DNA from: a virus | IMG/VR virus record: IMGVR_UViG_3300022758_000053 | Location: 1-15,723 of that record | DNA: 15,723 nucleotides | Strand: one strand, 5' to 3' | In this document: positions 1-15,087 of the stretch, piece by piece | Layout of the letters: each line of letters begins with the position of its first letter | Numbering within the stretch: position 1 is the first letter of the stretch | The notes under the pieces: generated by a model | What the model was told of the DNA's origin: nothing | The model's database searches: none | Seen by the model: the letters and a program-made list of their open reading frames with translations, nothing else | Translations under genes and position numbers: made by a program

Positions 1-103
1 CACGGCATGAGCTATGTCGAAGCTGCTAGGACAACGCTTGTTGAATTTGAGGTATATAATACCGCCTACGCTATTAAACAAGAGGACATCCGCTTTAACG
101 CAG

Positions 104-943
104 CTATTCAAGCATGGTATAACCAGAATCAAGTGTGCCATCGTTTTGAACTTTAGACAAAGTAGCTTGGTCTGCGATTTTAAGGCGCAAGTTAGTGCCG
201 TTTGGAATACCGTACACCAAGCCGTTGAAGTTACCAGTAATCAATGTACCTGTTGGGTAAGTTTGGCCGTCTTGCAATTGAAGTTGAGAATATGGAAGAC
301 CATCAAGCTCACCGATTGCGTTAGGGTTAGCTGGCTTAGTGAAGATGTGTTGACCACCGTTCACGCTGTCCACGATTCCACGGAGTGTGCGGTTGATTGT
401 GCGGTGCCCCACGAATGCGTTAGGTTCTTTTTCTGACTTGTCCTCAACATCGTAGATATTATTGAGGTTGATGTCACCAGATACGATGTTCTGAGCACGT
501 TTAGCAGACGCCAAAACGTTAGCGCCGAATGGGTTGTTATACAAGCCAAGGAACGCCGCCCCGTCGATTTTCTTGTTGAACAAGTCAACAATCTTGTCTT
601 TGATCGATTCAAAGAAGTTAGTCCAAGTGTAGTTGAGGACTTCTTCTGTAACTGGCAAGATAACTGCCAATTTACGAGATTCAAGAACGTAAGATTTAGT
701 TTGTACTTTTGCAGTACCGATTTTTTGACCTTCACCAACAAAGTAAGCGTCTGTCAATTGACCAACTTCTACGCCTTTACGAACCATTTTACCGTTCATT
801 TCAACTTTTTGACCAAGCTGAATGACTTTTGAAGTTTTTACAAGTTCGTCAGTGAATAGATCAGTGATGTATTCTGATGTAATCTCTTTTCCAAGAGAAT
901 CAGACAAGAGGACTGTGTCCGGATTGAATTTTTGTTGAGCCAT
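104..943 (-). CDS. Major capsid protein (279 aa)
   Basis: Complete ORF with an ATG at 943 and an AGGAG 5 nt upstream. It sits directly downstream of the scaffold gene, the usual position in SPP1-like head modules. Its size and composition fit a siphovirus major head protein. Confidence 0.8.
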   Translation of the reverse strand: MAQQKFNPDTVLLSDSLGKEITSEYITDLFTDELVKTSKVIQLGQKVEMNGKMVRKGVEVGQLTDAYFVGEGQKIGTAKVQTKSYVLESRKLAVILPVTEEVLNYTWTNFFESIKDKIVDLFNKKIDGAAFLGLYNNPFGANVLASAKRAQNIVSGDINLNNIYDVEDKSEKEPNAFVGHRTINRTLRGIVDSVNGGQHIFTKPANPNAIGELDGLPYSQLQLQDGQTYPTGTLITGNFNGLVYGIPNGTNLRLKIADQATLSKVQNDGTLDSGYTMLE

Positions 944-961
944 GCGCTCTCCTTTCTTAGT

Positions 962-1513
962 TTAGAAATTAGTGATTTTGGCTTTATCAAACTTGTCTTT
1001 TCCACGGTGAGAACGCCCTTCCTCTCCACCACTAGTGCGAGGTGGTAGAGCTTTAGCTTCTTCTCGTTTCTGCAAGTTTAGGATGTTAGCCATGTTTGAA
1101 ACAGCTAGCTTAGTAGCTTCTTCATCGCCTTTGACTACGAATGCAAGCGTTGACTCATTGACAGGCACGCCTTGAGCTTCGAGCTCTTTAATAGCGATAT
1201 CCTGCATTTGACGTTGAACGATCTGAGCTTGAAGTGCTGCAATTGTGCTCTGGGCTTCTTCGAATTCTTTATCCCGCTGTTTCTGTTGCAGCTCTTGAAG
1301 TTCTTCTTCACTCATTTTAGCTTTAGCAACAGCTTCCTCGATTTTTGCTTGAATACCGGTTTGCATATCAGCAATTTCAAGAGTGTGTTTCTCTTCCATC
1401 TGTTTGAGTCTACGCTGCATTTCAGCAACTGACACCATCTTCTCCTCTTTTTCTGGTTGGCTAGCTTCAACCTCTTGAGGATTCTCAACTGTTTCAAGTT
1501 CTTTTTCTGCCAT
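962..1513 (-). CDS. Capsid scaffolding protein
   Basis: Acidic, E/K/Q-rich 183-aa protein predicted to form coiled coil. It lies between the minor head and major capsid genes. ATG at 1513 with AAAGGAG upstream. Confidence 0.8.
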   Translation of the reverse strand: MAEKELETVENPQEVEASQPEKEEKMVSVAEMQRRLKQMEEKHTLEIADMQTGIQAKIEEAVAKAKMSEEELQELQQKQRDKEFEEAQSTIAALQAQIVQRQMQDIAIKELEAQGVPVNESTLAFVVKGDEEATKLAVSNMANILNLQKREEAKALPPRTSGGEEGRSHRGKDKFDKAKITNF

Positions 1514-1599
1514 GATAGGCTCCTTTCTTTACGCTTTTACGAGCAACCCCCTCGAACTCATGCAGCTTTTAACGTCCTCAGCACGGTCTGGACAAGAGC

Positions 1600-2556
1600 T
1601 TACTCGCCCCAAACACCGTTAACAGCTTCTTCGTCAAGAGTGCTGCCACCAGCTTTATATTCCATTTTGATATGTCCATACGCTGAACAGCGACAGTTAG
1701 GGTGCATTGGGTACATGTTAACCCCTTTCTCTGCCTTGTTGATTGGTATGGCCTTCCTATCAAGGGGCTTACAGATATCACAAGCCCCACTTTCAGCAAC
1801 ATAGATTAAATGTGTGAAGTCATTCTCCTTCAGCATCATCAATTCTGTATCAGCATTAATGCGAGCTATTTCGGTCTTGAGCAATCGTTGGGCGTTGGCT
1901 TGGCTTGTGTTATATTTCTTAGCTAATCGTTGCCGTTCCTGCTTAAAACCGTCCATGTCGGTGAAGATACGTGCTAACGAGCTAAACACATCCTTCTGCA
2001 TGTTTGCACGAAGTCCGTTCCTGCCCCAAACTCTGCGACTAAAATTCTGACCGTAGAAATCAGCGTCTAAAATTGCTCTCATACGACTTACCGCATTGAC
2101 AGCAGAATTGCCTAAGATACCCGCTTGGCGCTTAAATTCAGCTAAATATTCACTCTCACGCGCTTTATCGAAGACTTCGTTAACATCTGATATAAGACTA
2201 GCTATTTCAAGCCTTAATTCTGCTTTGAGTAGCTCCAACCGACTGACTTTCATTTTTAAGTTAAACAGTCTTAGCCATTGATTAGTGCCGTGTGAGAAGT
2301 CCTTCTCGACTACTGCCTTTCTAGCTCGGTCTCTGTACTCAGTAACATCGAACTCATTAGCTCGCTTCATAGCTTCGGCACGGCTTAGCCCCTCTTTGTC
2401 AGCGTAGCGCATGTAAAAGCCGTTTATTTGGCTCTGCATACGGTTATATGACGCTTGATAAAGCTCTTTTAAGACCTTGTCACGCTCTATGTCACGCTTG
2501 ATTAGGTCTGATTGCGCTTTTCTCTCGGCATTGTAGCGTTCATTATTCGTCATCAT
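1600..2556 (-). CDS. Minor head / head morphogenesis protein, SPP1 gp7 / Mu F family
   Basis: The C-terminal motif ...CDICKPLDRK...NMYPMHPNCRCS is typical of the gp7/MuF family. It lies immediately after the portal gene. The ORF track starts at GTG 2565. I prefer ATG 2556 (AGGTG 6 nt upstream), which overlaps the portal stop codon. Confidence 0.85.
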   Translation of the reverse strand: MMTNNERYNAERKAQSDLIKRDIERDKVLKELYQASYNRMQSQINGFYMRYADKEGLSRAEAMKRANEFDVTEYRDRARKAVVEKDFSHGTNQWLRLFNLKMKVSRLELLKAELRLEIASLISDVNEVFDKARESEYLAEFKRQAGILGNSAVNAVSRMRAILDADFYGQNFSRRVWGRNGLRANMQKDVFSSLARIFTDMDGFKQERQRLAKKYNTSQANAQRLLKTEIARINADTELMMLKENDFTHLIYVAESGACDICKPLDRKAIPINKAEKGVNMYPMHPNCRCSAYGHIKMEYKAGGSTLDEEAVNGVWGE

Positions 2557-4042
2557 CCTCAACACCTACAATCTGACTAACTTCTAGATCAGTAGCCCCG
2601 CCCTCTTCGAGCAAACGGCTCTTTTCTTTGCGAGCGTCTGTGAAGCTAGCTGATTCCATAAGCGTCTCTTGTGAGATTTCCATGCCGGAATTGATAGCAG
2701 ATTGAATCTCAGCCCATACATCCGTTGGCAGGTTCTCATGGAACGTAAATGTCAGCATGTCAGCGTCCACTGGTTCGATACCTTTGAGATTGTTAGATAG
2801 CAACTCAAGCAGCTTATAGCGTCGTCTGAGCGCCTTGACAAAGAACCCACGCTTAACGGCTGTAACTTGCTGCAAATCAACTAGCTTGTAGCGGATAGCG
2901 ATCCCAGACGTAGCTGAGAAAGTCGAATCGTCTTGCAAGTTAGGCAATCCAACAATGCGGAAGAAGTCTTTAATCAAACGTGATTTATACGCTTCGACAC
3001 CGCTGACATCATATTGTTTGTAGATATAGCCGGCATCTAGTGACGTTTGCTGCCCGTTGTGTCCGACACCACTCTCAAGTACTAGCATGTTAGCGTGCTT
3101 CATTTTCATGATGTCAGACGCATTCATGCCAGTACTTTCGACATCACCCTTGATAACCAGCATGGCATCGTTAAGGTCTGACATGTAGTTAGCTGTGTCC
3201 GACTCTGCTGCGTCGTAAGCGTCAATGATTGGAATCCCTTTCTCCCAATCTCCCGAACGCTCTCGGTTATTCTGCCATTCAACTACCGGCACCATTCCGA
3301 ACGGGTTTTCTTTACGCTCGATTTCCTGCCAGTTTGGATCATAGCTGACAATCTTGCTATCAGTGTAGACCGTGACAAACATTTCACCGTTGTACACTGG
3401 GCAATGAACAGCCGCAATGATATCTTTTCGGACGTCTGCGCTACGGATTGTGAACATCTCCCTTGCATCAATCAAGACCACTGCTGGATTGCCAAACTCA
3501 TCATAATAATGCAGCTCAAACGCTCGCCCAAAACGTGAAGCGTCATAGACTAACTCACGGTTAAGAGCTTCAATGTCGTTGTAAGCGTTGAAGTCATCAA
3601 TAGCCGTCAAGTCGCTGTCAGTGTCAGTAGCACCAATTGAAATAGGTTGACCCACCGTATAACCAGTGAAGAAGCGGCTAGCTTGTCCGCCCAGATCATG
3701 CCTAATACGGTAGTCAGCTTTCTCTGGCTCTAGTCGTTTACGACCATTTAGAATGGTGTAGTTGTTCCCGTTTGAGTAGCTCTCTAGGATATTCAAGCGG
3801 TCTATCTGTCCATCTTGGAACTGAGCTACCATCTTCTCTAACTTCTCTCGCCCTTGAAACGTGTCCACTAGGTCATCCGCTGATTGAGCCATGAAGTGGG
3901 TGTTAGCTTCTTTGGGAAAATGAAGGAAGTCTTCACGTTTCTGCAAGCTAGTCGGTTCCATGTCTCGCTCGAATTGGTATGATCTAGGAATGTACTGTCC
4001 TTCATGTAAAATGTCGTCAGCACTATGTGTTGTGTTCGTCAT
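2543..4042 (-). CDS. Portal protein (SPP1 gp6-like)
   Basis: A 499-aa ORF directly after terL, with stop TAG, one nucleotide, then ATG, and AAGGAG upstream. Its size, acidic C-terminus and position fit an SPP1-type portal. Confidence 0.9.
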   Translation of the reverse strand: MTNTTHSADDILHEGQYIPRSYQFERDMEPTSLQKREDFLHFPKEANTHFMAQSADDLVDTFQGREKLEKMVAQFQDGQIDRLNILESYSNGNNYTILNGRKRLEPEKADYRIRHDLGGQASRFFTGYTVGQPISIGATDTDSDLTAIDDFNAYNDIEALNRELVYDASRFGRAFELHYYDEFGNPAVVLIDAREMFTIRSADVRKDIIAAVHCPVYNGEMFVTVYTDSKIVSYDPNWQEIERKENPFGMVPVVEWQNNRERSGDWEKGIPIIDAYDAAESDTANYMSDLNDAMLVIKGDVESTGMNASDIMKMKHANMLVLESGVGHNGQQTSLDAGYIYKQYDVSGVEAYKSRLIKDFFRIVGLPNLQDDSTFSATSGIAIRYKLVDLQQVTAVKRGFFVKALRRRYKLLELLSNNLKGIEPVDADMLTFTFHENLPTDVWAEIQSAINSGMEISQETLMESASFTDARKEKSRLLEEGGATDLEVSQIVGVEDDDE

Positions 4043-4043
4043 T

Positions 4044-5324
4044 CTATCTCCTTATCAATTTGTTAACCCGTCTAATCTTAGCGTCTACATCCTGCCTATC
4101 CTTGACGAAAATAAGGTTCTGCAGTGCGTACCTAATCGCATCGATACAGTGGTTATAGCTATCGCATGGCTTGTTGATGTACTCGTTTGTATACTTATCT
4201 TTCTGCCATGTATAGTTTTCAAGCTCTTCAATCGTCTTGACGCATCTTTCATCAACGATTATGTCGAATTGCTGCAGGAACTGAATCCCTTGTAGAACTG
4301 AGCCTTTGCCCTTGTCTACCGGAATAGCTCGACGCAAGCCCAGCGTTTGCAATTCAGCAATGGATTTCTGTTCCGCCGAGTCGGCCATAATCACCTCTTT
4401 TGAATAACCAAGGCTAGTAATAGCTTCTGCTATCTGGTTGTTAAGCAAGCCCTTTTTGACATACTCCTCTAGGATATATAGCCGCTTATTCTCTCGGTCT
4501 ATTTTGACGTGCATAAACGCCGTGGGGTCGTTTGTAAAACCAAAGTCAAGACCAAAAAAGGACGGTAGCTGTTTAAGCTCGTCCTTATTGAGCAATTTCT
4601 TTTCGTACTTTGGAAATACTAACTTATCGAGGGTGGCAAACTCACCCAAAGCATAGATTTTGTAGTAGGCTTCGTTTCGGTTGGCTAGCTCCTCGATATT
4701 CTCCTTGGTCAAGTCATCCAGAAAGCGATTATCCTTGTACGTCGTTTGATAAACCACTGTATTCTTAGGGCTCTTCACAAAGAATGCGTTATATACCCAG
4801 TTGGCCTTAGACACTGGGTTGAACATCAAATAGATTTGTTTTTGTTTGTGAGCCTTGTCCCTCAAGCGAAGTGTTAGCTGTGTGTAATCATCAAGCGTAA
4901 ACTCTGACGCTTCTTCCATCACAACGTCTGAAATGCCTTTGATAGACTTGATTTTCTCTGGGTTATCCATCCCTTTAAAAATCAGTTCAGCTCCGTTTGG
5001 TAATTCAATACGGAATGCGCTCATGTTAACCTTGCATAGATTAAGCACACCGAAATAGGACAAGGCTGCTTGCACATCCGCAAACACCGAGTCACGAACC
5101 GTAGAGCCTACTTTTCGCAATATCAATATTTTTCGGGGTTTATCCCACTTTTTAAGAGCCTTGAGGACTATTTTTTGGAAGACGCCGTGACTCTTACCGC
5201 TAGATGCTCCGCCGTAGTGTACCTCGGTGAATGTGTCATAATCAAATAGATGTTCATAGATATGCCGATTAAACACCTTGCTTGGATTGATTTCAAGATT
5301 AATCGTCATTCCATTCACCGACAT
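4044..5324 (-). CDS. terL: Terminase large subunit
   Basis: Walker A motif HYGGASSGKSHGV near the N-terminus and a C-terminal nuclease-domain signature (CDSYNHCIDAIRYAL). The start overlaps the terS end. An alternative start is ATG 5309 (MTINLE...). Confidence 0.92.
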   Translation of the reverse strand: MSVNGMTINLEINPSKVFNRHIYEHLFDYDTFTEVHYGGASSGKSHGVFQKIVLKALKKWDKPRKILILRKVGSTVRDSVFADVQAALSYFGVLNLCKVNMSAFRIELPNGAELIFKGMDNPEKIKSIKGISDVVMEEASEFTLDDYTQLTLRLRDKAHKQKQIYLMFNPVSKANWVYNAFFVKSPKNTVVYQTTYKDNRFLDDLTKENIEELANRNEAYYKIYALGEFATLDKLVFPKYEKKLLNKDELKQLPSFFGLDFGFTNDPTAFMHVKIDRENKRLYILEEYVKKGLLNNQIAEAITSLGYSKEVIMADSAEQKSIAELQTLGLRRAIPVDKGKGSVLQGIQFLQQFDIIVDERCVKTIEELENYTWQKDKYTNEYINKPCDSYNHCIDAIRYALQNLIFVKDRQDVDAKIRRVNKLIRR

Positions 5325-5742
5325 TAATATTGATATCTTGCGTTACATCAGCTTCGACCTTATCTGTCCACATCCTATAGCGCTTACCGATATCAACTGC
5401 CGCAGCCCGACGAGTAGCTACATTCGGTTTAGCTTGAGCAATGCGTTGCATACCCTCACCATCCAGGACAAGCAAGGGTTCTTCAACCTCACCACGCATG
5501 ACGGCAGTGAGAAATTCCATGACCTCTTGTTGATCCGCAACACGTTCCGATTTTAATTGTTCCAGTCGTTCGTCTATATAAGCCTTGACCTCAGTATTTC
5601 TTAGTAGCTTACTACCATTGACTTCTGCCGTCCTTATCTTCTTAATACTAGGATAAGCCTTTTTGTACGCCTGCGTAGCGTTTAGGCTGATGATGTACTC
5701 ATCGGCAAACTTTATTTGTTTTTCGGTCATCCCATTTTCCAT
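5299..5742 (-). CDS. terS: Terminase small subunit
   Basis: N-terminal ...MTEKQIKFADEYIISLNATQAYKKAY is the usual small-terminase HTH signature. The ORF track starts at TTG 5781. I prefer ATG 5742, which follows GAAAGGAG. ATG 5730 is also possible. Confidence 0.8.
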   Translation of the reverse strand: MENGMTEKQIKFADEYIISLNATQAYKKAYPSIKKIRTAEVNGSKLLRNTEVKAYIDERLEQLKSERVADQQEVMEFLTAVMRGEVEEPLLVLDGEGMQRIAQAKPNVATRRAAAVDIGKRYRMWTDKVEADVTQDININVGEWNDD

Positions 5743-5747
5743 CAACT

Positions 5748-5767
5748 CCTTTCTGATCCTTTCTGAT
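5748..5767. repeat. Exact tandem 10-mer x2 (plus-strand CCTTTCTGAT; minus-strand ATCAGAAAGG) spanning the terS ribosome-binding site
   Basis: Read directly from the sequence. The duplication gives two SD-like GAAAGG motifs upstream of the terS ATG. Confidence 0.7.
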
Positions 5768-5849
5768 ACTGAAAAAGACAACCCACAAAGTGAGCTGTCT
5801 CTGATTTTCTTCGATAATATAATAATACCACCTTAAACAGTTGTTAGAC

Positions 5850-5887
5850 ACCGTGAATTAACCGTTGAAATACCGTTATTTCAACGT
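5850..5887 (-). promoter_or_regulatory. Four direct A(C/A)CGT motifs (plus-strand reading) spaced exactly 11 bp apart, between arpU and terS
   Basis: Plus-strand ACCGT at 5850, 5861 and 5872, and AACGT at 5883. On the minus strand this reads ACGGT x3. An AT-rich TATTAT/TATATT stretch follows in the direction of transcription. This is a candidate late-promoter activator site or pac-region binding site. Confidence 0.35.
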
Positions 5888-6297
5888 TCCACAACTAATT
5901 TGCCATCTCTATACAATTCTGCAAATGCTAGGATAGCATTATTTAGCAATTCTTGAAAAGCCGTCCTCTCGAATCCGATTGCCTGGGCGATTTGCCAGTT
6001 TGGTTTCGGAGGGTATGCCAGATATTTCTCTATCAGTATTCTGCGATAGTCTGGACGATATAGCCCGCTAACTGCTTGCTCTATGGCTTCTAGCTCGTTC
6101 ATAGCATCAACACGCCTAACTGCGATATTTTCCACTGGTCTGCTCACTCCGCTACCACCTCGTGGCATGAAGGTAAACTCTTGTGTGATCTTCTGCTCAG
6201 CGCTATCGTGTGCTATCTCTCGCCATCTAGGGTATTCTCGAAGTTTTCGCTTGCAACGTTTGATAGTTGCTTTTTCATCAATTTCCGGCAATAGCAT
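5881..6297 (-). CDS. arpU: ArpU-family phage late transcriptional regulator
   Basis: A 138-aa ORF with MLLPEID..ATIK..KRKLREYPRW... and C-terminal ...IAQAIGFERTAFQELLNNAI, a sigma region-4-like HTH. It lies immediately upstream of terS, as ArpU/RinA regulators usually do. ATG 6297 with AAGAGGA 7 nt upstream. Confidence 0.85.
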   Translation of the reverse strand: MLLPEIDEKATIKRCKRKLREYPRWREIAHDSAEQKITQEFTFMPRGGSGVSRPVENIAVRRVDAMNELEAIEQAVSGLYRPDYRRILIEKYLAYPPKPNWQIAQAIGFERTAFQELLNNAILAFAELYRDGKLVVER

Positions 6298-6311
6298 TGT
6301 TCTATCCTCTT

Positions 6312-6320
6312 TGGTATAAT
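6312..6320 (+). promoter_or_regulatory. Extended -10 promoter-like element TGgTATAAT on the plus strand
   Basis: TG at 6312-6313 and TATAAT at 6315-6320. There is no good -35 element. A transcript from here would be antisense to the arpU leader. Confidence 0.25.
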
Positions 6321-6344
6321 AGTAGTGTTGATTTTCAAAGAGTG

Positions 6345-6368
6345 CCGGCCATTATGTCGGTCTTTTTT
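6345..6368 (+). terminator. Plus-strand hairpin with T-run (CCGGC-cattat-GTCGG tc TTTTTT)
   Basis: A 5-bp stem including one G-U pair (6345-6349 with 6356-6360), followed by T6 at 6363-6368. The stem is weak. Confidence 0.3.
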
Positions 6369-6461
6369 GTTTGGCCCAAAAAACATTAAGAAGTTTTATA
6401 AGGGAAAGATTAATGTATTTGTTTTTGGGTTGTTTCTTGGGCCTTTTATCACCTCCTTCTA

Positions 6462-6494
6462 GCCAAGACACCAGCAAGATCTTTGGCTTTTTTT
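6462..6494 (+). terminator. Plus-strand hairpin with T7 run (GCCAAG ... CTTTGGC TTTTTTT)
   Basis: About 6 bp of stem (6462-6467 with 6481-6487), a large 13-nt loop, and T7 at 6488-6494. Confidence 0.3.
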
Positions 6495-6669
6495 AGTAAT
6501 GCGATATCGATAAGAAAGAGGGTGTTTCACATCCTTTTCTCTTAAATTTGCCGGGTTTTTGTTGAGCAAGGTCTGTCAGCTTGCTCGGTGTTGAAAAGTG
6601 TTCAAGCCACTAAAAATCTATATTCATTTTTTTTAGCTTCATTTTTTATTTTTAGTGTTTGACAGACAA

Positions 6670-6714
6670 TGGCTGGCAAGAGGAATCGAACCCCTTGAGT
6701 AACCACTCCAGCCA
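6670..6714 (-). ncRNA. tRNA-like minihelix 1: acceptor stem, D-loop-like bulge and T-arm, with no anticodon arm
   Basis: The minus strand reads TGGCTGG-AGTGGTTACT-CAAGGGG-TTCGATT-CCTCTTG-CCAGCCA. It has a perfect 7-bp outer stem, a 7-bp inner stem with one G-U pair, and a canonical GGTTCGATTCC T-loop. The 10-nt bulge AGTGGTTACT resembles a D-loop. Confidence 0.5.
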
Positions 6715-6999
6715 GATATAGTGAAATCATTTTTTTGGAGATTTTCCTCCTTCGTTTTTGAAATAATACAAGAATTATGGAGATTTCTGACCTATATCCA
6801 ATTGCAGGCATAAGCCTTGGATAATCACGCTACCAGTATGAGCGTTTTAGATTTTGTAAAGATAAAAATAAAGGATACCTACTTTCTATATTTTAGATTT
6901 ACTGGATTTGGGTAGCGTCAACGACCAGTCACGCTTCCGCTGATTTGAATGAAAAGAAATCAAAAGGCTCCTCTTTTCTAATTTATATTGACTGGTAAT

Positions 7000-7030
7000 A
7001 GCTAGTAAGGGAGTCGAACCCTCACTAGCT
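7000..7030 (-). ncRNA. tRNA-like minihelix 2: 7-bp acceptor-like stem stacked directly on a 5-bp T-arm
   Basis: The minus strand reads AGCTAGT-GAGGG-TTCGACT-CCCTT-ACTAGCT. This is a 12-bp helix with one G-U pair, capped by a canonical GGTTCGACTCC T-loop. No D arm or anticodon arm can be placed. Confidence 0.45.
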
Positions 7031-7087
7031 ACATGCCTAACGCATAGGCTTTATACAAGGCTTTTCTGACCGTAATTTTATTACGCC

Positions 7088-7735
7088 CTAACTCGCCTTT
7101 TTACGATATTTCAGAATAATTCTGCCAATCTCGTCATCTAACCTTTCAGGCCACTCATAATGATTGAAGACACAATCAACAATCTTACTGAATAGCTCTC
7201 TTGACAGCACGCCTTCCATTTGAATGGCCTTCAAAGGAGTTAAAGCAGCCTTCTCTAAATAACACTGATTGATGGCGTTTTGGGTTTTGTTAGCTTTCTT
7301 CTTATCGCACCCTTTAATATCTCTAATGTACTTGTTTAGGTCGTTAGGGTGTTCCTTGCGTAGCCCTTCCACTTCCTCACGGAACTCCTGGAATAGCTCC
7401 GCTGGCAGTCCTGCGTTGGTTTTATCCAAAACTGGGCGCGTGGTTTTACCTCTTGTGTAATTCTTGGATAGATATGCTTTAAGGTCATGATATAGCTCAT
7501 CAGAAATGATGCCTTTCAGTCTATCGACTGTTTGAGGTGAGATTCTCTGACGCTCCACGACCGCATTATTGAGTGCTTGCAAAATGATAATCGCTTGTTT
7601 CTCGCTGCACTGTCTCACTTTTTGGAAATGTTGCTTGTAATCTTTCGGATGTGCCTCTTTAAGTGCTGCATGTTCATTGATCAACCGTTGATGTAGCTCC
7701 TTGGTCAGTCCAGCATATTTGTAGGTTTTGCTCAT
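7088..7735 (-). CDS. Hypothetical protein (215 aa) made of two tandem copies of a roughly 95-aa domain
   Basis: ATG 7735 overlaps the upstream stop as ATGA. The track's longer N-terminal extension overlaps the previous gene. The internal repeat AGLTKELHQ...KEAHPKDYK...C..K.A / AGLPAELFQ...RKEHPNDLNK...C..K.A is visible by eye. Confidence 0.75.
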   Translation of the reverse strand: MSKTYKYAGLTKELHQRLINEHAALKEAHPKDYKQHFQKVRQCSEKQAIIILQALNNAVVERQRISPQTVDRLKGIISDELYHDLKAYLSKNYTRGKTTRPVLDKTNAGLPAELFQEFREEVEGLRKEHPNDLNKYIRDIKGCDKKKANKTQNAINQCYLEKAALTPLKAIQMEGVLSRELFSKIVDCVFNHYEWPERLDDEIGRIILKYRKKAS

Positions 7736-7980
7736 GAGCTCCGCTCCTCTATCGCTTGGCAGTCTGCGATATATCCCTCTAATGTTATTCCAACGGCTTC
7801 GAACGGAGCGTATTCGCACACAGTTCTCTTAACCACCATTGTCGTAAGCGCTCTTGTATTTCTTGGACCTCTACCGCAAATAATAGCTACATCTCTCCTA
7901 AAGCGATCTCGCTCGAAAGCCATATCATAAAGTTTTGAGACGTTTCTCATTACCGATTTTTTTAATTGTCGTTTGTTCAT
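7732..7980 (-). CDS. Hypothetical protein (82 aa)
   Basis: ATG 7980 overlaps the HNH stop as TAATG, and its own stop overlaps the next start as ATGA. No family was recognised. Confidence 0.65.
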   Translation of the reverse strand: MNKRQLKKSVMRNVSKLYDMAFERDRFRRDVAIICGRGPRNTRALTTMVVKRTVCEYAPFEAVGITLEGYIADCQAIEERSS

Positions 7981-8525
7981 TATTCCACCTCTGCCAGTTC
8001 TGGATTCTCGTAGATTCTATTTCTAATAGTTGACCAATCGCACCCGTAATGTGATGCAATCCAATTTATTGATTTACCTTCGACTAAGAATGTTTTTAAC
8101 TCTTCTAATGGGATTGAAATGCGCTTTTTCATTTTTAAGCCTTTTCTATTATGATTTGCCATGCTTATTTTTCTCCTGTGAGACTCTGAAAAAACACGTC
8201 CTTTATTATGTTTGCTATTATGAGCTTTATTCAATATCAAAGATAAATTTTCTTTTCTTGCATCTAACTTATTCTCATTCAAATGATGTACGCTATATTC
8301 AAATGGAATTCTTGTTCTTAGCCAATATTGCATTAAAAGCCTGTGCACATGAATCTTTTCGTTATGAATTGAAACAGCAGGGTAGCGACCGTGCAAATAT
8401 ATTTTTTTCTTGCTTAAAGAAGGTTTTTTCTGATACCACAGAATTGCCTTCTCTAATTCAGAATAATCAACAATACACTTACATTCATTGTCGAACTCAA
8501 TTTTCTTCTGTATTTTCAACGTCAA
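7980..8525 (-). CDS. HNH endonuclease with a C-terminal HTH
   Basis: HNH core ...VHHLNENKLDARKENLSLILNKAHNSKH and a C-terminal HTH-like INWIASHYGCDWSTIRNRI. No ATG lies upstream of the HNH core. I place the start at TTG 8525 (GGGAGG about 12 nt upstream), with TTG 8519 as an alternative. The track's start at 8669 would overlap yopX by 173 nt. Confidence 0.75.
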   Translation of the reverse strand: MTLKIQKKIEFDNECKCIVDYSELEKAILWYQKKPSLSKKKIYLHGRYPAVSIHNEKIHVHRLLMQYWLRTRIPFEYSVHHLNENKLDARKENLSLILNKAHNSKHNKGRVFSESHRRKISMANHNRKGLKMKKRISIPLEELKTFLVEGKSINWIASHYGCDWSTIRNRIYENPELAEVE

Positions 8526-8928
8526 GTAACTCACCGTCCTCCCATATATTCCCGATGATTTCAACTTCGAAGATATCTGTGTTAAACAAGTCGTATAGAG
8601 GGGATTCTTCGATTTCTCTTTTGATTTCCTTGGAAACAAACATCGCCTTGTTGTTGTTAAAAGATACAACTTCCAACCAGCTTGATAGGTTGGTCACTTT
8701 AAGAATATCCCCCTCAAAGATTTCTTTGCCATTCTTGTCTCTGAGGCCAGTTGATTGCATTAAAACACAATCATCGCTCTTGCACATCCAAGTGATAGCG
8801 TCTCCGATGAAATCAAACTCGCCATTAAAGAAATTAATTTCTTCCACATCTACCATTTCTTTATCTTCTTTAAGCCACGCTCTAAATCTTAACAAAACCA
8901 CCACGCTCCTCCCATTTTTCTTTGGCAT
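8497..8928 (-). CDS. YopX-family protein
   Basis: Contains RFRAW...MQSTGLRDKNGKEIFEGDIL, the characteristic YopX signature. The start is uncertain. ATG 8928 overlaps the upstream HNH by 47 nt, and GTG or TTG codons just after a GGGAGGAG at about 8896-8903 are alternatives. Confidence 0.85.
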   Translation of the reverse strand: MPKKNGRSVVVLLRFRAWLKEDKEMVDVEEINFFNGEFDFIGDAITWMCKSDDCVLMQSTGLRDKNGKEIFEGDILKVTNLSSWLEVVSFNNNKAMFVSKEIKREIEESPLYDLFNTDIFEVEIIGNIWEDGELLDVENTEEN

Positions 8929-9328
8929 GAAGTCTTGAGTGTTCCGAAAATGACATCAATTCAATATTTTCGGGACTATTATCTAGTTTATTTTCATTTA
9001 CATGATGTGCAACTTCATTATTTTTCAAAAACCTTCCTAATTTATTCTCCAATACTAATCTATGTTTTCCAACATACCCTGATTTCATGGCATTGGGGTG
9101 TTTAGGCATGTAAATGTATTCATATCCACTAATAATGACGCTCTTTTTATAAGACCTTCTCCTAACACCTAACTGTGAGCAAGATTGACTGCACGCAGTT
9201 AATCTGTTACCTTCCCCTGTTGGTCTAATAACAAGAGATCCACATTTAGGACATTTGAATAATGAACAATACTCTAACCTTTTTCTGTTGTTGATTCTCA
9301 TTCTTCCTAACCTTTTGATTAGTATCAT
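8882..9328 (-). CDS. HNH endonuclease with an N-terminal Cys-rich (zinc-ribbon-like) region
   Basis: Contains CPKCG...C..SC and AHHVNENKLDNSPENIELMSFSEHSRLH. ATG 9328 overlaps the upstream stop as ATGA. It is a paralogue of the HNH at 7980-8525 (shared HH-x-NENKLD...EN). Confidence 0.85.
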   Translation of the reverse strand: MILIKRLGRMRINNRKRLEYCSLFKCPKCGSLVIRPTGEGNRLTACSQSCSQLGVRRRSYKKSVIISGYEYIYMPKHPNAMKSGYVGKHRLVLENKLGRFLKNNEVAHHVNENKLDNSPENIELMSFSEHSRLHAKEKWEERGGFVKI

Positions 9329-9621
9329 TGCCCTCTCCCTTTCAAATAGCTAGGGATGTCATCCCCAACATTCGCTTGGTCATACTGTTCCTTGCTTACT
9401 AGAAACTTCCCGTAAGCTCCGCAATCAATAGTGTAGAGATCATTAATTTTCTCTTTCCCGGTAACCTTGCCATACATTTCAGAACCAGCGTTATCTACCC
9501 GATGGATAGTTACTGTCTCTACCCTGCGTGGCACTGTCAGAACGTAGTAGACTGACAGCATGTTGATAGCTAGTGATACTAGTAGTATGATTGTAGCTAT
9601 CGTTAAATCTTTATGTTTCAC
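9325..9621 (-). CDS. Small membrane-anchored phage protein (DUF1372-like)
   Basis: N-terminal transmembrane helix (LTIATIILLVSLAINMLSVYYVL). GTG start at 9621 with AAGGGG 7 nt upstream, overlapping the end of the methyltransferase gene. The family assignment is from memory only. Confidence 0.65.
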   Translation of the reverse strand: MKHKDLTIATIILLVSLAINMLSVYYVLTVPRRVETVTIHRVDNAGSEMYGKVTGKEKINDLYTIDCGAYGKFLVSKEQYDQANVGDDIPSYLKGRGQ

Positions 9622-10366
9622 TCATAAACCCCTTATATACCTTTTTTAAAATCTCGCAAACCAAACTCAGAGGAATGTTTGACCTCTCATTATAGGATTT
9701 CGTCCAATCTTGAAATTTGATGTCATTTGACTTCTTTTCATTTTTAAGATTCAACTCAATGTTTCCAGAAAATCGAGTTGGTTTAGAAATCGGATAGTCG
9801 TCATAATTGTTGTATCTTGTATGATTTTCAAACGGGATTTCGAACCCCAGCACTCTCTCGATGTATTGCCAAATTCTGCCATGAGCTGGGTTCTCTATGA
9901 TCCAATATTTGGGCTTGTATCGTTTGATGATTTCGACTGTATTGAACACACACAATTCACCATTGATTCGTTTCATAAGTTGTTTATTTGGGTAGTATTG
10001 ATATCTGTCATAATCCTTATGATCACGAACGGTAAATATCGACAAGGGTTCTTGTGGTTGAAATAAAGAGTCACCTTGCTCTTGTTTCCAACAAGCATTT
10101 CCTCTATCCATGGCGCTAGCGTTAGACCAACTTTCACACGGTGGGCTAGCGATAATCAGATCAGGTTTAGGCAATTTGTCCAATGTGTCAAATAGTGTGT
10201 TATTTCCAAACAAACGGCTATAATCAGCTAAATTCAGATTGATAAAATGATGATTTTTATTTTCGATATCAATACCTATTGGATAGATTTCAATATCTTT
10301 GCCCAGTTTCTTTACACCTTTTGTGTATGATCCGTTTCCACTGTCAAACAATGCCCAGACAATCAT
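9611..10366 (-). CDS. Compact C5-cytosine DNA methyltransferase-like protein (251 aa)
   Basis: Several motifs resemble the C5-methyltransferase set. ALFDSGNGS resembles motif I (FxGxG), ASPPCESWS resembles motif IV (PC), IIENPA resembles motif VI (ENV), and RSNIPLSL resembles motif X (GNxVP). ATG 10366 lies 1 nt after the upstream stop with GAGGAAG upstream. Confidence 0.6.
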   Translation of the reverse strand: MIVWALFDSGNGSYTKGVKKLGKDIEIYPIGIDIENKNHHFINLNLADYSRLFGNNTLFDTLDKLPKPDLIIASPPCESWSNASAMDRGNACWKQEQGDSLFQPQEPLSIFTVRDHKDYDRYQYYPNKQLMKRINGELCVFNTVEIIKRYKPKYWIIENPAHGRIWQYIERVLGFEIPFENHTRYNNYDDYPISKPTRFSGNIELNLKNEKKSNDIKFQDWTKSYNERSNIPLSLVCEILKKVYKGFMSET

Positions 10367-10367
10367 C

Positions 10368-10886
10368 CTAGAGGTCTTCCTCTTTGACGAAAGTGCCATT
10401 AATCATCTTTCCCTTTCTATTCTTAATCTCCTCGTAAGCAATACCGAGACACTCGGTCACATCAAGGTCTAGTTGATGCGCTAGTACGATAATCGTTACC
10501 AGCGTGTCACCGATAGCATCCTTGAGTGCTGCTTGTGGCTCAGCGAATTTCGTTGGTTTCAAGAGTACATCCCGAATCTCTCCGACTTCCTCAGTGATAC
10601 GCATCCACTGTATTTTCGGGTCAGCTTGTTTTAATCCACGGCTATCTGCCCAATGATTGATGCAGCGAACAAGTTTATCAAATTTTCCTTCGAACAATGT
10701 TTCATTCCCTAAAACTTCTATGATAGTCACCCCAAAATAGTCAGCAATTTTTTTGGCACTGTGCATTGTGGGCCAGTATTCCCCCGATTCGAACTTACGT
10801 AACACAGATTCTGAGAATCCTACTTCATCGGCCAGTTCCGATATGGTTAATTCCTTTTTCAGCCGTAGTCGTTGAATTTTATTCAT
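10368..10886 (-). CDS. Fusion protein: XRE-type HTH with a MazG-like NTP pyrophosphohydrolase domain
   Basis: The N-terminal part, LKKELTISELADEVGFSESVLRKFESGE...AKKIADYFGVTIIEVLG, is an XRE HTH. The C-terminal part, ITEEVGEIRDVL...LKDAIGDTLVTIIVLAHQLDLD...YEEIKNRKGKMINGTFVK, is a MazG-type all-alpha NTP-PPase. ATG 10886 overlaps the upstream stop as TGATG. Confidence 0.8.
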   Translation of the reverse strand: MNKIQRLRLKKELTISELADEVGFSESVLRKFESGEYWPTMHSAKKIADYFGVTIIEVLGNETLFEGKFDKLVRCINHWADSRGLKQADPKIQWMRITEEVGEIRDVLLKPTKFAEPQAALKDAIGDTLVTIIVLAHQLDLDVTECLGIAYEEIKNRKGKMINGTFVKEEDL

Positions 10887-11395
10887 CACTCCACCTCTTT
10901 CACTTCCACGCCCGGGCAATCGAATATCCAGCCAAAATCAGCTTCTTCTAGCTCTTTGCGGGTGTGGGCTCTACTTTGCGTGTATATGTTATTGTAAAAA
11001 CGCAATCCGTTAGTGCCTGTTTTCACTAACCAATCTCCGCCCCCATCTTTCTTCTTGAGTTTAACCGTATATCTAGCCTCTTTCTCTACCTCGTAGCCAA
11101 ACTGGTGCATGTTGACTAGGATATTAAACGGTCTTGTTTTGCTACTGATCAACCATTCTTGGAAGTCAGTTAGACCGCCACAATTGTAATTTTTTTCAGT
11201 CTGGCAGACCTCTCGATACAGATTTATCTCAAACTCATCCTTATGCCCCTCATACCAATCTGCCACACACGGCGGTACCACTGGTTTTGGGAAAAACGAG
11301 TCATATAGGTCTTCTGCGTAAGATACCGAACCGCCAGATATCCTTGATATTGTCCGCACTGCTTCTTCTCGACTTACTGCTTCTTGTCTATCCAT
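10886..11395 (-). CDS. DUF1642-like phage protein
   Basis: A 169-aa ORF with KPVVPPCVADWYE..., a motif I associate with DUF1642 proteins of Streptococcus and Lactococcus phages. ATG 11395 overlaps the upstream gene by 8 nt. Confidence 0.65.
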   Translation of the reverse strand: MDRQEAVSREEAVRTISRISGGSVSYAEDLYDSFFPKPVVPPCVADWYEGHKDEFEINLYREVCQTEKNYNCGGLTDFQEWLISSKTRPFNILVNMHQFGYEVEKEARYTVKLKKKDGGGDWLVKTGTNGLRFYNNIYTQSRAHTRKELEEADFGWIFDCPGVEVKEVE

Positions 11396-11597
11396 TGTTT
11401 TCTCCCTCTAGCAAAATCTTTTCTAACTGCTCAATCGTTTCGGTTCTTACATAAATCCGATTTGTCCCGTCTGCGAACGGCGTTTTTACAAAAATGATAT
11501 TAGGGCCAATAGAGATGTGCCCGATATCATCGACATTTAAAATTGTGTCCATATCAATTCCTTGTGCGATGTTTGTAACTCTAATAAATTTAGCCAT
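11388..11597 (-). CDS. Hypothetical protein (69 aa)
   Basis: ATG 11597 is preceded by AAGGAGG with a 6-nt spacer. The track's longer form (start 11651) lacks an RBS and overlaps the upstream ORF. Confidence 0.6.
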   Translation of the reverse strand: MAKFIRVTNIAQGIDMDTILNVDDIGHISIGPNIIFVKTPFADGTNRIYVRTETIEQLEKILLEGENNG

Positions 11598-11841
11598 TAC
11601 TAACCTCCTTTGACTCCACTTCATGGCACTTGCTACCGCCATACTTAGCACCTTGTCTGTGAAACTCGTTCAGTGCCTTATTCTTGTCCTTGTATTGAAT
11701 ACGTTGGTATAGCTTGCCATTCTCAAATACTGATACCGCCCAACTCATTTCATGCTCCTTAATTCCCATAGTTATCGGTTCCGGCCCTTCTCTGAAAACC
11801 TTTGCCGGATTCTTTGCTATAAATCGTCTTAACCATTGCAT
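11590..11841 (-). CDS. Hypothetical protein (start uncertain)
   Basis: ORF in the operon frame. ATG 11841 has a poor RBS. The internal ATG 11748 (MSWAVSVFENGK...) follows AAGGAG with a 6-nt spacer and may be the true start. Confidence 0.5.
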   Translation of the reverse strand: MQWLRRFIAKNPAKVFREGPEPITMGIKEHEMSWAVSVFENGKLYQRIQYKDKNKALNEFHRQGAKYGGSKCHEVESKEVSNG

Positions 11842-12068
11842 AGCTCGACCATCTTTCTTAACAAGCCTTCATCCGGTAACTGCTCTAGTGTCAAAATCCG
11901 ATTGAGCTTTTTTGCGTTGATTCCCAACTTAGCGCTGATATATTCCATATCTTCGTGGTTAGCCCAGAACCATTTCGAAAACTCTTGCGTTTGACCTAAT
12001 ACGCTTGTGTGGTCGTAACTGCCCGGCGCATACACACCAACCAACTTATCTTTATATTTGCTGTTCAT
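11829..12068 (-). CDS. Hypothetical protein (79 aa)
   Basis: ATG 12068 overlaps the rusA stop as ATGA. No family was recognised. Confidence 0.65.
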   Translation of the reverse strand: MNSKYKDKLVGVYAPGSYDHTSVLGQTQEFSKWFWANHEDMEYISAKLGINAKKLNRILTLEQLPDEGLLRKMVELCNG

Positions 12069-12526
12069 TCAAGCTCCTTGATTTCAAGTTCAATGCGTGG
12101 GTTAGGACTGTACTTCTTACGAGCTCTCAACTCGCAAACAATGCTGTCATCCGTCCAGACGATACCCTTCTTATCAACTTTGTTGTAGCCAGCTTTTGAA
12201 ATACTGTCAAAGAGCGATTTGACCAGATTATCAACGTCTGGAGTTTTCGCATGCCAAAGTGTTTCAGACATGAACCGCTTGAACGCATCCCACGTTTTAG
12301 CCCTTGCTTTTGGCGTTGGTTTCTTCGATACATTCAGCGGGGCTTTCATGTAAAATACGACATCGACTGAGATAGGACCGTCGTAGAATTGTCCGTCATA
12401 TTCTTGCTCGATAAGTTGCGAACATTGACGACGCCATGCCTTCATTTTAGGGTCTTCGTAAGTTCCGAATTTGCTGAATCGTGGCCTTGTTTGAGGTTTA
12501 GGCTCAATGTTTAAAATCATTTTCAT
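12065..12526 (-). CDS. rusA: RusA-family Holliday junction resolvase
   Basis: Contains EPKPQTRPRF..., ...KTPDVDNLVKSLFDSI... and ...VWTDDSIVCEL, which match the RusA catalytic-Asp signature pattern. It is 153 aa long. Confidence 0.85.
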   Translation of the reverse strand: MKMILNIEPKPQTRPRFSKFGTYEDPKMKAWRRQCSQLIEQEYDGQFYDGPISVDVVFYMKAPLNVSKKPTPKARAKTWDAFKRFMSETLWHAKTPDVDNLVKSLFDSISKAGYNKVDKKGIVWTDDSIVCELRARKKYSPNPRIELEIKELE

Positions 12527-12538
12527 GTTTTCACCAAA

Positions 12539-12994
12539 TCAGAAGGGTAGATCTGAATCTTGGATATCCATAGGGTTTGAATTACCAAACGGATTGCCGT
12601 TATTTTTTGAATAACTTGGCGCTTGCTGTTGAGATTGATTATAACCACCGTTAGCATTGCTACCTTCACGCGCTGCACGGCTTTCTAACATTTGAAAGTT
12701 CTCAGCAACCACCTCAGTCACATAGACTCTTTGACCTTGCTGGTTCTCGTAGCTGCGAGTCTGGATGCGTCCAGTAATCCCAATCAATGCGCCTTTTTTA
12801 GCCCAATTAGCCAAATTCTCGGCTTGCTGACGCCAGATAACGCAGTTGATAAAGTCTGTTTCACGTTCGCCGTTAGCATCCTTGAAATTGCGGTTAACAG
12901 CTAGGCTAAACGTAGCTACTGCAATGTTACTGGTCGTGTATTTTAGTTCGGGGTCACGGGTTAGGCGCCCAACTAGTACGGTCGAATTGATCAT
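12539..12994 (-). CDS. ssb: Single-stranded DNA-binding protein
   Basis: [20 protein letters not shown]... OB fold, a Gly/Gln/Asn-rich linker, and the acidic tip ...DIQDSDLPF. The ATG overlaps the upstream stop as ATGA. Confidence 0.95.
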
Positions 12995-13974
12995 TGATTT
13001 TCTCCTAGAATTTCATAATTTACAAAGTTGTCATCCAACAGCTTAGCGAATTGATGCCACTGATTCTCTCCGCCGTGGAAAGTTAGTGAAAGATTGACCT
13101 TGTACGGTTCAGCGGGTTTGCTAGGCACTTCCTCGACAGGCTTAGTGTCTTCGATAACCTCGCCTGTTTCAGCATTTACTGCTTTGATTTCCTTGTTAGC
13201 TGACTGTTGGGCCATTGCTTCAATCTCTGCTAGACGTGCCGCTTCTGCTTTTTGTTTGGCTTCTGCTTGCTGCTTGCGTTCAATAGCTGCATCACGGTCC
13301 TTCTTCATTTGCTTGACAACTTCAACTAGAGGTGTGCCAATTTGCAATAATTTGATATATAGCTCTGCCGGTAGTTCATAATCAAGAGCTTGTTCTTCAA
13401 TCATGGCAATGTTGGCCTTGTATTCCTCAAGTCGGTCATACTCAGCCAAAACCAATGCGTCAATCTTTTCTTCTGTCGCTTTTTTGAGCTTCATTTTCTT
13501 ATCCATGAAATCTCCGACTTTAGAAAAGCTCTCGTACTTGTCCTTGAATGTATCCTTGTCTAGTCCGGCTAGCTCACACTTACTTTCAAAGACTGATCTA
13601 ACGTGGTCGATTCGCAGCATTTTTTTGTGTTCTTTGACTTCATCACGTTTAGCGCGCAACTTGTCAAGAAGTGCATTCAATGGCTCTAGCGAGGTCGCTA
13701 GTTTAGATTCAAACTCGGTGAGTGGGTCTTTGTAGATTCTGCCAATTTCCTTACGCTTGTCATCCAGTTTGTCGCCAAGCCCTTTGAAACGAGTAATTTC
13801 TTTTAAGACCTCGTCATATTCAAGCTGGTCCAGTTGCTCGTCTGATAGCTCGCTAACTGCCGCTTGAATAGCTGCATCGAATTTGTCAAAGTCGAAGTTA
13901 ATCGTCCCCGGTGTATAAACCGGCTCGATTGTTTCCAAGAAATTGTTTGTTGCGTTGTTCGTTACGTCCTTCAT
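12991..13974 (-). CDS. DUF1351-like coiled-coil phage protein, accessory to the recombination module
   Basis: A 327-aa, E/K/A-rich coiled-coil protein located between erf and ssb. DUF1351 proteins occupy this position in lactic-acid-bacteria phages. The family call is from memory. Confidence 0.6.
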
Positions 13975-13977
13975 GTC

Positions 13978-14676: not shown

Positions 14677-14730
14677 GTCATATCCTTTTTAATACCCCTA
14701 ATTCTCAAATTTTGGGTTCTCTTATCGTTT

Positions 14731-15021
14731 TTAGGTGGTAGTTTCTGATTTTTGGTATTCTTCGTAAAAATCAAAACCCTGCTCTCTAAGTCTGCTGAGT
14801 TTTCGTGCCATAATTTTATTCAAAAGATCAACAACATCCTTTTTATCTTCAGCATCCAGTCTGACCGATGACGAGATGTCTATCCCGTTAATGCTTTCGT
14901 AAACTTTGACCTCGATATAGTTCTTCCCTTCGGCTGAACTTAGCACTCTTACAATGTCACTTAAGACCCTTGACTCGTCCCAGACTTCTTCAAATTCTTT
15001 GAATGTTATCGTTGCTCTCAC
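14731..15021 (-). CDS. Hypothetical protein (96 aa, GTG start without a clear RBS)
   Basis: The ORF is in operon orientation. Its first codon is GTG at 15021. An upstream 20-codon ORF (ATG about 15052) with a GGGAGGG motif lies in another frame and overlaps the start. Confidence 0.5.
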   Translation of the reverse strand: MRATITFKEFEEVWDESRVLSDIVRVLSSAEGKNYIEVKVYESINGIDISSSVRLDAEDKKDVVDLLNKIMARKLSRLREQGFDFYEEYQKSETTT

Positions 15022-15087
15022 CTCTAAACTTCATTTTTTGATTATCTGCCATAATTAATGCCTACCCTCCCACCACTTCATGTTCTG

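Follow-up and report, generated by a model that had tools for sequence, protein, structure and literature searches.

Anticodon-less tRNA mimics embedded in a structured RNA between DUF1340 and the late-gene activator of Streptococcus phages

The stretch of viral DNA analysed here (the window; 15,723 nt, positions 1 to 15,723 of the IMG/VR record IMGVR_UViG_3300022758_000053) carries a 790-nt non-coding gap (6298-7087) between a DUF1340 / phrog_1814 gene (7088..7735) and the gene of an ArpU-family late-gene activator (5881..6297). The gene order, entirely on the minus strand, is HNH endonuclease (8669-7980), small open reading frame (ORF), DUF1340, gap, ArpU, small terminase, large terminase and portal. 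An initial annotation, made from the sequence without any database search, had noticed in this gap a 45-nt element resembling a tRNA reduced to its acceptor stem and T-arm. This element (copy B) and a second mimic located ~330 nt upstream (copy A) both belong to a structured RNA of ~660 nt (about 7031..6373, minus strand), which is followed on its 3' side by the ArpU-family gene.

Copy B (6670..6714, minus strand) reads TGGCTGG-AGTGGTTACT-CAAGGGG-TTCGATT-CCTCTTG-CCAGCCA from 6714 to 6670, exactly as initially described. It consists of an acceptor-like stem (6713-6708 with 6676-6671, plus a T6714-A6670 pair specific to the window), a D-loop-like bulge (6707-6698) and a T-arm made of a T-stem (6697-6691 with 6683-6677) capped by the T-loop TTCGATT (6690-6684), and it is devoid of any anticodon arm, as had been stated. 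Its minimum free energy fold is the proposed pair of stacked stems (-18.5 kcal/mol). The acceptor-like stem does covary but the length of 7 bp attributed to it does not hold as a rule, as an outermost T-A pair is found in only 6 of 41 relatives and the usual length is 6 bp; if the stem is counted in this way, A6670 is the discriminator of copy B. The motif GGTTCGAWTCC (at most one mismatch) occurs three times in the window, for 0.34 expected, and two of these three matches are located on the minus strand of the same 790-nt gap.

Taken alone, the energy of the fold stands out only slightly (z = -2.1; 4 of 200 shuffles are equally stable). The decisive evidence comes from comparative covariation. 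Among 41 B modules, 95.9% of the cells are paired and 7 pairs show double changes; none of 500 shuffles reaches the observed level, and partners that have been slid are paired in only 37–50% of the cells. The same holds for 26 representatives of all the sequence types (96.4% of cells paired, double changes in 7 of the 11 pairs, covariation 0.44 versus 0.21), in which the T-loop GGTTCGAyTCC and the equivalents of the pairs G52-C62 and G53-C61 do not vary at all. Furthermore, a covariance model (R1) trained on the A-type and YMC-type copies of other phages, with no sequence from the window, recognizes copy A (45.3 bits, E ~1e-9) and copy B (31.8 bits, E 2.7e-6) as the only significant matches in the window, the next one scoring 12.1 bits. 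Both stems are thus conserved by compensatory changes in related prophages, a point for which the initial annotation had proposed a check. Two pair positions of the B modules are most often G·U, and a third one frequently is. These pairs would become A·C mismatches on the opposite strand, which bears out the gene-sense polarity initially attributed to the element, and this strand specificity disfavours a site acting as double-stranded DNA. Copy B is therefore a real conserved RNA structure, neither a relic nor a chance hairpin.

The canonical GG-TTCGAyT-CC arm stacked on an acceptor-like stem, with its unvaried loop and two unvaried closing G-C pairs, agrees with the T-arm that had been recognized in copy B. 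The description of the element as an elbow mimic can be retained in part only: the GG of the bulge is conserved in more than 90% of the copies that have a bulge, but this bulge is wholly absent from several lineages, including copy A of the window. It can also be observed that 27 of the 41 B copies display A·A, G-C and G·U at the first three of 7 acceptor positions (alignment A2, columns 38-44 / 76-82), the G·U resembling a G3·U70 pair and recalling the alanine identity element, at a place where the copy of the window has G-C. Charging by an AlaRS-type enzyme through this pair was considered and rejected, as the pair varies between copies and can be numbered in more than one way.

Copy A (6999..7031, minus strand), which was exposed by permissive Rfam alignments, is in the window a minihelix without bulge, (T)AGCTAG-TGAGGG-TTCGACT-CCCTTA-CTAGCT(A). 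In the closest annotated phage, SA-TP2 of Streptococcus salivarius (~80% identity across the intergenic gap), and in most other relatives, it harbours a 9-nt bulge (AACGGTTTA) between the stems and thus has the same design as copy B. Exact-pattern scans of IMG/VR retrieved 30, 56 and at least 85 loci, most of them with two copies on the same strand, 215–345 nt apart, and some with a single hybrid copy. A third sequence type, TAGCCAG-AATGGTATA-GACGG-TTCGATT-CCGTC-A-CTGGCTA, is found in the S. salivarius phages YMC-2011 and Javan536. The classical Streptococcus thermophilus phages O1205, Sfi19 and Sfi21, as well as 2972 and 858, also belong to the family, of which Sfi11, 7201 and DT1 are putative members; overall, 248 and 319 phage records match two query regions, i.e. 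several hundred S. thermophilus phages. The first copy of Sfi21 has the textbook 7 + 5 bp arrangement (GATTTAT-ATGGGCTTGT-AGCGG-TTCGAAT-CCGCT-ATAAGTC). Bulge-less minihelices of 12–13 bp capped by the T-loop include copy A of the window and the O1205- and Sfi19-type copies, and the stacked helix of the mimics measures 12–14 bp (range checked by hand). The mimics end in a discriminator A or G followed by TT (UU in the RNA) and do not encode CCA. Neither copy A, nor the pairing between trailer and hairpin loop described below, nor the ~660-nt RNA shared with dairy phages of S. thermophilus had been listed initially. The RNA that carries tRNA mimics between DUF1340 and a late regulator is proposed as a new family. 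The window displays its characteristic features: acceptor-like stem, T-arm, discriminator-UU and trailer/loop complementarity on the gene-sense strand.

The mimics are only a part of the ~660-nt RNA, in which at least 15 helices are supported, including four long-range pairings between a single-stranded segment and a downstream hairpin loop. A model of 95 pairs in 16 helices, four being of pseudoknot type, is 95.7% paired in 39 whole regions, with double changes at 27 pairs, for only 32–44% when the partners are slid; the shorter version found in S. thermophilus and YMC phages is 95.1% paired. The GCCTA/TAGGC hairpin (7049-7035), which counts among the 16 helices, falls within the DUF1340 frame of the relatives, so that its conservation may be at the coding level. 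All the elements described below are on the minus strand. The 3' trailer of copy A, ACCAGTC (6990..6996), pairs with GACTGGT (6930-6924) in the loop of hairpin 1 (6915..6934; stem GCGT 6934-6931 / ACGC 6918-6915). A second long-range pairing (6827..6905) associates CCAGTA (6905-6900) with TACTGG (6838-6833) in the loop of hairpin 2 (6827-6845; stem ACGCT 6845-6841 / AGCGT 6831-6827). On the 5' side of copy B, a helix GAAATC (6787-6782) / GATTTC (6728-6723), i.e. helix 9 (6723..6787), is 99.6% paired with 6 double changes and includes an apparent start ATG; it encloses a hairpin GGAG (6750-6747) / CTCC (6740-6737), which becomes GGGG/CCCC in relatives.

The 3' trailer of copy B (6661..6669) consists of UU (6669-6668) and of GTCTGTC (6667-6661). 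The latter pairs with GACAGAC (6577-6571) in the invariant loop CTGACAGAC (6579-6571) of hairpin 3, ~85 nt downstream (6564..6586; stem GAGCAAG 6586-6580 / CTTGCTC 6570-6564). The stem of this hairpin covaries strongly: double changes affect 3 of its 7 pairs among the S. salivarius sequences and 5 of 6 among those of S. thermophilus. The complementarity between trailer and loop is found in 105 copies of the family, and locus L038 carries the compensating variant GTCTATC/GATAGAC. A fourth long-range pairing (6461..6554) involves CCGGCAA (6554-6548) and TTGCTGG (6477-6471) in the loop of hairpin 4 (6488-6461), with a compensated CCGGCAA/TTGCCGG in loci L036 and L068. The distance from trailer to hairpin loop is 60–100 nt, the loop always being downstream, and the co-varying segment/loop pairs are ACCAGTC/GACTGGT, ACCAGTA/TACTGGT, GTCTATC/GATAGAC, CCAGCAA/TTGCTGG and CCGGCAA/TTGCCGG. 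At the 3' end of the structured region, a closing 12-bp stem (6373..6443) is formed by GGCCCAAGAAAC (6443-6432) and GTTTTTTGGGCC (6384-6373); in the other sequence classes, its pairing is kept through changed and wobble pairs, as read from alignment A3 without a formal count. The helices are separated by long A-rich spacers prone to indels, and the length of the RNA varies from ~250 nt in dairy phages to ~700 nt in S. salivarius prophages; units are gained or lost between phages.

Several other sequences of this region can be mentioned. An 11-nt direct repeat, TTTTTYRACAC, present in 1–3 copies depending on the phage, abuts the 5' side of hairpin 3 (~6606-6588, minus strand; alignment A2, columns 160-185); AACAC is also found after the B trailer. 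This repeat could be a protein-binding motif. The sequence AAGGAGGTGAT (6458-6448, minus strand) is perfectly complementary to the 16S rRNA 3' end but is not followed by a start codon. It is kept as GGAGGTG or GGGGGTG at the same place in S. thermophilus phages and resembles the mRNA stabilizers called 'STAB-SD'. In dairy phages, the trailer could also form a local hairpin, TAGTC-TGTCAT-GACTA (1757-1775 of locus L150, 1525-1545 of locus L151 and other S. thermophilus phage loci). This hairpin, which is missing in the S. salivarius copies, would compete with the trailer/loop pseudoknot and might constitute a two-state switch.

The location of the RNA is conserved together with its structure. 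In 100 of 131 locus-strands, DUF1340 ends at most ~100 nt from the first T-loop; the others are for the most part cut at the edge of the locus. A late regulator is encoded within 900 nt downstream in 103 locus-strands. This regulator is ArpU in 64 cases and the unrelated DUF1492 protein in 39, which ties the RNA to a position and to DUF1340 rather than to one particular regulator. The same arrangement is found in Sfi21, STP1, O1205 and Sfi19. A scan for promoters and terminators revealed neither a sense-strand promoter nor an intrinsic terminator between DUF1340, the RNA and arpU, which makes their co-transcription plausible. A terminator-like hairpin (GCCGGCCATTATGTCGGT followed by CTTTTTTGTT; 6344-6371, plus strand) lies just upstream of arpU, antisense to all the genes; its G·T pairs suit the plus strand only, and it may end an antisense transcript across arpU. 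At the same place, S. thermophilus phages have a hairpin after an A-run on the gene-sense strand. The early region also contains two HNH endonuclease genes (7980-8669 and 8882-9328, minus strand), and a third type is found beside the terminase in relatives such as SA-TP2.

The DUF1340 gene overlaps the RNA in relatives. Their frame is 20 codons longer and its stop codon TAG (7031-7029) coincides with the first three bases of the acceptor of copy A; in S. thermophilus phages, the 5' strand of the acceptor and the bulge even correspond to the final DUF1340 codons. In the window, the gene is shortened by a frameshift: an A-run, CGTAAAAAGGCG, is one base shorter than that of the relatives, CGCACTAAAGGCAAG (7105-7088, minus strand), which leads to a premature TAG (7090-7088) and to the loss of the conserved C-terminus ...GRDKIAVRKALYKAYALGV. 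The missing base may reflect either a genuine mutation or an error made in sequencing a homopolymer. The protein, considered as a potential partner of the RNA, gave no hint as to its function. DUF1340 itself is its sole Pfam match, it has no sequence match in the PDB, and no paper mentioning DUF1340 was found in a literature search. Its AlphaFold model (window 7091-7795; predicted local confidence, pLDDT, of 76) shows two tandem six-helix repeats (residues ~26-112 and 126-212), and a fold search gave no significant match (best E 0.8), with only a faint likeness to Cro/cI-type helix-turn-helix proteins.

Despite their T-arm and acceptor-like stem, the mimics are not tRNA genes, as they lack the D-arm/anticodon cloverleaf and ARAGORN finds 0 tRNA or transfer-messenger RNA (tmRNA) genes in the window. 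The tmRNA hypothesis was discarded on the same ground and because the tmRNA model of Rfam only matches a 17-nt T-arm in the window, with 8.1 bits for a gathering score of 47. No Rfam family reaches its gathering score anywhere in the window. At E<=10, the search of 6300-7150 returned neither the tRNA model (RF00005) nor ROOL or GOLLD, one lower-scoring match from the same clan being suppressed from the table, and no relevant family was obtained at E<=5 for the corresponding region of Sfi21; what these permissive searches returned were weak matches to a T-arm or to a deleted tRNA. The first copy of Sfi21 is the only one noticed by the tRNA model of Rfam, with 16.8 bits for a gathering score of 29. 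Full-text literature searches did not reveal any description of the mimic-bearing RNA.

The C4 antisense RNA of phages P1 and P7 is processed by RNase P, and the tRNA-like RNA of P1 pairs with short complementary sites located downstream on the same transcript. This RNA, the MALAT1/mascRNA-type ends and the tRNA-like structures (TLS) of plant viruses share with the phage mimics an acceptor/T-arm, and usually elbow mimicry, inside a longer transcript; the TLS of turnip yellow mosaic virus (TYMV) also has a pseudoknot beside its acceptor end (for TLS and tRNA mimicry by long non-coding RNAs, see PMC4810234). The phage mimics differ from them by the absence of any analogue of the anticodon arm, by their internal rather than 3'-terminal location, by their presence in two copies and by the downstream pairing of the trailer instead of the mimic loop; moreover, processing is in their case putative. 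Like the tRNA-like domain of tmRNA, they combine an acceptor stem, a T-arm and a stem-less D-loop without anticodon arm with a series of pseudoknots, and the third acceptor position is a G·U in many B copies. Unlike it, they have contiguous 5' and 3' halves, no P2 helix and no tag reading frame. YrlA, a bacterial Y RNA-like RNA, is another non-coding RNA (ncRNA) that includes a tRNA-like module with a canonical T-loop, and it is also reported from some phages (PMC4201824). In contrast with the phage mimics, it possesses a D-arm and a Ro-binding helix that replaces the anticodon stem; the window has no Rsr/Ro gene and no Rfam match. The closest design is that of the tRNA minihelices (acceptor-TΨC) used as substrates in vitro, which corresponds to copy A of the window and to the O1205- and Sfi19-type copies, but these minihelices are laboratory constructs whereas the phage version is natural and conserved. 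Lastly, GOLLD and ROOL are large structured ncRNAs of phages and prophages (PMC12286853; PMC5737381) from Lactobacillales and other bacteria, located at the positions of phage tRNA islands and folded through loop-mediated long-range pairings supported by covariation; GOLLD can even hold tRNAs in a linker (PMC12286853). The RNA described here shows no Rfam similarity to them, is modular, measures ~250–700 nt, has A-rich spacers and carries truncated tRNA mimics instead of complete tRNAs.

How might such mimics work? The elbow and the acceptor/T-arm limb of tRNAs are recognized by RNase P, RNase Z, the CCA-adding enzyme and TruB (PMC4810234). In Streptococcaceae, all the tRNA genes are CCA-less and RNase Z cuts directly 3' of the discriminator, the first base of a mapped tRNA-Ala trailer being a U (PMC8549757). 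The mimics, without encoded CCA and with a discriminator followed by U, are consistent with these host tRNA genes. The reading tentatively preferred, which is put forward with real reserve, is therefore a tRNA-style punctuation, in which the mimic would be an entry site for the tRNA-maturation enzymes of the host on the early-to-late transcript; recruitment of these enzymes, cleavage and an effect on the timing of late genes would be its steps. The initial annotation had listed a processing signal among several roles, and this role still appears the most plausible one. The process would be as follows. Two anticodon-less mimics would be transcribed in gene sense within the ~660-nt RNA of siphophages of S. 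salivarius and S. thermophilus (Aliceevansviridae). They would be bound by host enzymes that read only the acceptor/T-arm limb, RNase Z being the main candidate, and RNase P, the CCA-adding enzyme and TruB/TrmA being possible ones. The long early/middle transcript would be cut at the mimic, leaving the upstream DUF1340 message with a stable tRNA-like 3' end and the leader of the late activator with a 5' end sequestered in the trailer/loop pseudoknot. The stability and the timing of the early and late-regulator RNAs would thus be uncoupled, and the start-less Shine-Dalgarno sequence at 6458-6448 might provide further stabilization.

Several data weigh against such a punctuation. The lack of the D-loop-like bulge, i.e. 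of the elbow partner of the T-loop, would weaken the elbow contacts of RNase P and RNase Z, and the stacked helix varies from 12 to 14 bp instead of being strictly 12. A cut by RNase P on the 5' side of copy A would strip the DUF1340 of the relatives of its stop codon, because this TAG is made of the first three acceptor bases, and would also remove ~7 DUF1340 codons in S. thermophilus phages. As the trailer is paired from 2–3 nt past the discriminator, RNase Z could be hindered. Finally, two of the four trailer-like/loop pairings do not adjoin any tRNA mimic, so that the architecture is richer than a cleavage signal needs. A bolder proposal, about which more doubt is warranted, is that the RNA represents a previously undescribed modular class of phage ncRNA, with anticodon-less mimics, each bound by its 3' trailer to the loop of a hairpin located downstream, further segment/loop pseudoknots and a perfect but start-less Shine-Dalgarno sequence. 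When phages of the Moineauvirus/Brussowvirus type pass from early to late expression, this RNA might serve as a switch, a timer, a particle made of RNA only or a decoy, and so be more than a passive cleavage site.

T-loops frequently mediate tertiary contacts. Together with the four segment/loop pairings, the hairpins capped by T-loops might build the tertiary or multimeric fold of a large self-contained ncRNA, as in ROOL and GOLLD. The role of such an RNA, be it a cage, a sponge or a regulator, would be independent of cleavage by tRNA enzymes. The size of the RNA, its 15 or more helices with four long-range pairings, its pairing level (95.7%) with 27 double-change pairs and its modular units gained and lost between phages fit this architectural role, as do the known contacts of T-loops (see also PMC4810234) and the precedent of ROOL and GOLLD, i.e. 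phage RNAs near tRNA islands with kissing loops, some of them intermolecular, and sometimes tRNAs in the GOLLD linker (PMC12286853). However, there is no Rfam match to ROOL, GOLLD or any other family, the long, A-rich and indel-prone spacers are unlike those of compact ornate RNAs, and a full acceptor-like stem with discriminator-UU is more tRNA-like than a bare T-loop contact requires; this rival, the strongest one, is considered rather unlikely. The other explanations are progressively less likely, in the order in which they are given below. Phages are known to evade defence with RNAs that imitate those of the host, and the phages carrying the mimics, temperate as well as virulent, infect a host group rich in defence systems. 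The canonical T-arm and acceptor geometry, often present in two copies per genome and conserved across these phages, might titrate a host factor that binds the acceptor/T-arm, such as an AbiE/MenT-type abortive-infection toxin, which targets tRNAs by modifying or cutting their acceptor end, or a protein that modifies or binds tRNAs. Such a decoy is improbable, as no defence or counter-defence gene is linked to the mimic and its site is fixed at the early/late boundary and not in variable anti-defence islands. In addition, the drift of the acceptor sequence by covariation implies that no particular host tRNA is copied, and titration of toxins acting on the 3' end would need prior processing and CCA addition.

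Still less credit can be given to an element working as DNA, whose palindromes and inverted repeats would bind proteins or form single-stranded structures (operators, packaging or replication signals). The proximity of the late-regulator and packaging genes, the TTTTTYRACAC repeats and the inverted 7-8-mers that could act as paired half-sites would suit it, but the dominance of G·U/G·T at many positions on one strand only is an asymmetry not expected from double-stranded DNA sites, the invariant loop is the consensus T-loop of tRNAs, and the cos site of Sfi21 is more than 1 kb away. The question of a relic was addressed by an exact-match scan of the 20-mer GGGGTTCGATTCCTCTTGCC (one genome per species, 185,579 species). 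Its matches lie in genuine tRNA-Thr and tRNA-Trp genes from unrelated phyla and in one Streptococcus prophage without tRNA; none of them is in a Streptococcus tRNA. The 3' 20–24 nt of copy B are shared exactly with tRNA-Thr genes from Phascolarctobacterium, betaproteobacteria and Omnitrophota and with tRNA-Trp genes from candidate phyla radiation (CPR) bacteria (54-129 of locus L075, 4976-5051 of locus L091, loci L072 and L082, and others). The mimic thus probably goes back to a tRNA-Thr-like gene from which positions 8-48 were lost, and it is now maintained as a half-tRNA. That it would be a mere decaying relic of a tRNA gene, or an att core derived from the 3' end of a host tRNA, as also envisaged initially, is hardly credible: the 3' 24 nt of some copies are indeed the 3' end of genuine tRNA-Thr genes, e.g. 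from Phascolarctobacterium, but both arms undergo compensatory change in more than 100 loci and in several hundred dairy phages, and the site is fixed between DUF1340 and the late regulator and never beside an integrase. The combination of an exact match to the 3' half of a host tRNA with a decay of the 5' arm, which would have indicated such a relic, is contradicted on both points, as the exact 20-mer is absent from the tRNAs of the Streptococcus genomes scanned (one per species) and the 5' arm is maintained. Equally hard to credit is a small coding gene, either the ORF 6811..6602 (69 aa) present in the window or one starting from an internal ATG at 6730, 15 nt downstream of a GGAGG. This ATG is replaced by ACG in several relatives, the frame of SA-TP2 stops after 25 codons and gives a different peptide, the indels are not multiples of 3, the 'GGAGG' ribosome-binding site is half of the covarying GGAG/CTCC hairpin and no PHROG match was found.

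The tRNA-style punctuation, tentative as it is, concerns phages of practical importance. The structure is solid and belongs to a very well-studied group, the function being the part that we infer. No biological agent threatens the fermentation of yoghurt and cheese more than S. thermophilus phages, which are also workhorses of CRISPR biology, and hundreds of their genomes have been annotated with the region of the RNA left blank. Located at the boundary between early genes and late activator, the mimic-bearing RNA is a testable candidate for the timing or the stabilization of late expression. It also provides, after GOLLD and ROOL, a third case, unrelated in sequence, of large phage RNAs at tRNA-island positions. 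As tRNA-like structures are already known, what is new is a natural and conserved anticodon-less half-tRNA that forms a module in a family of phage RNAs not described so far. Such a natural 'minihelix', if it is indeed a functional module, would bear on the way in which viruses co-opt the tRNA-processing enzymes of bacteria.

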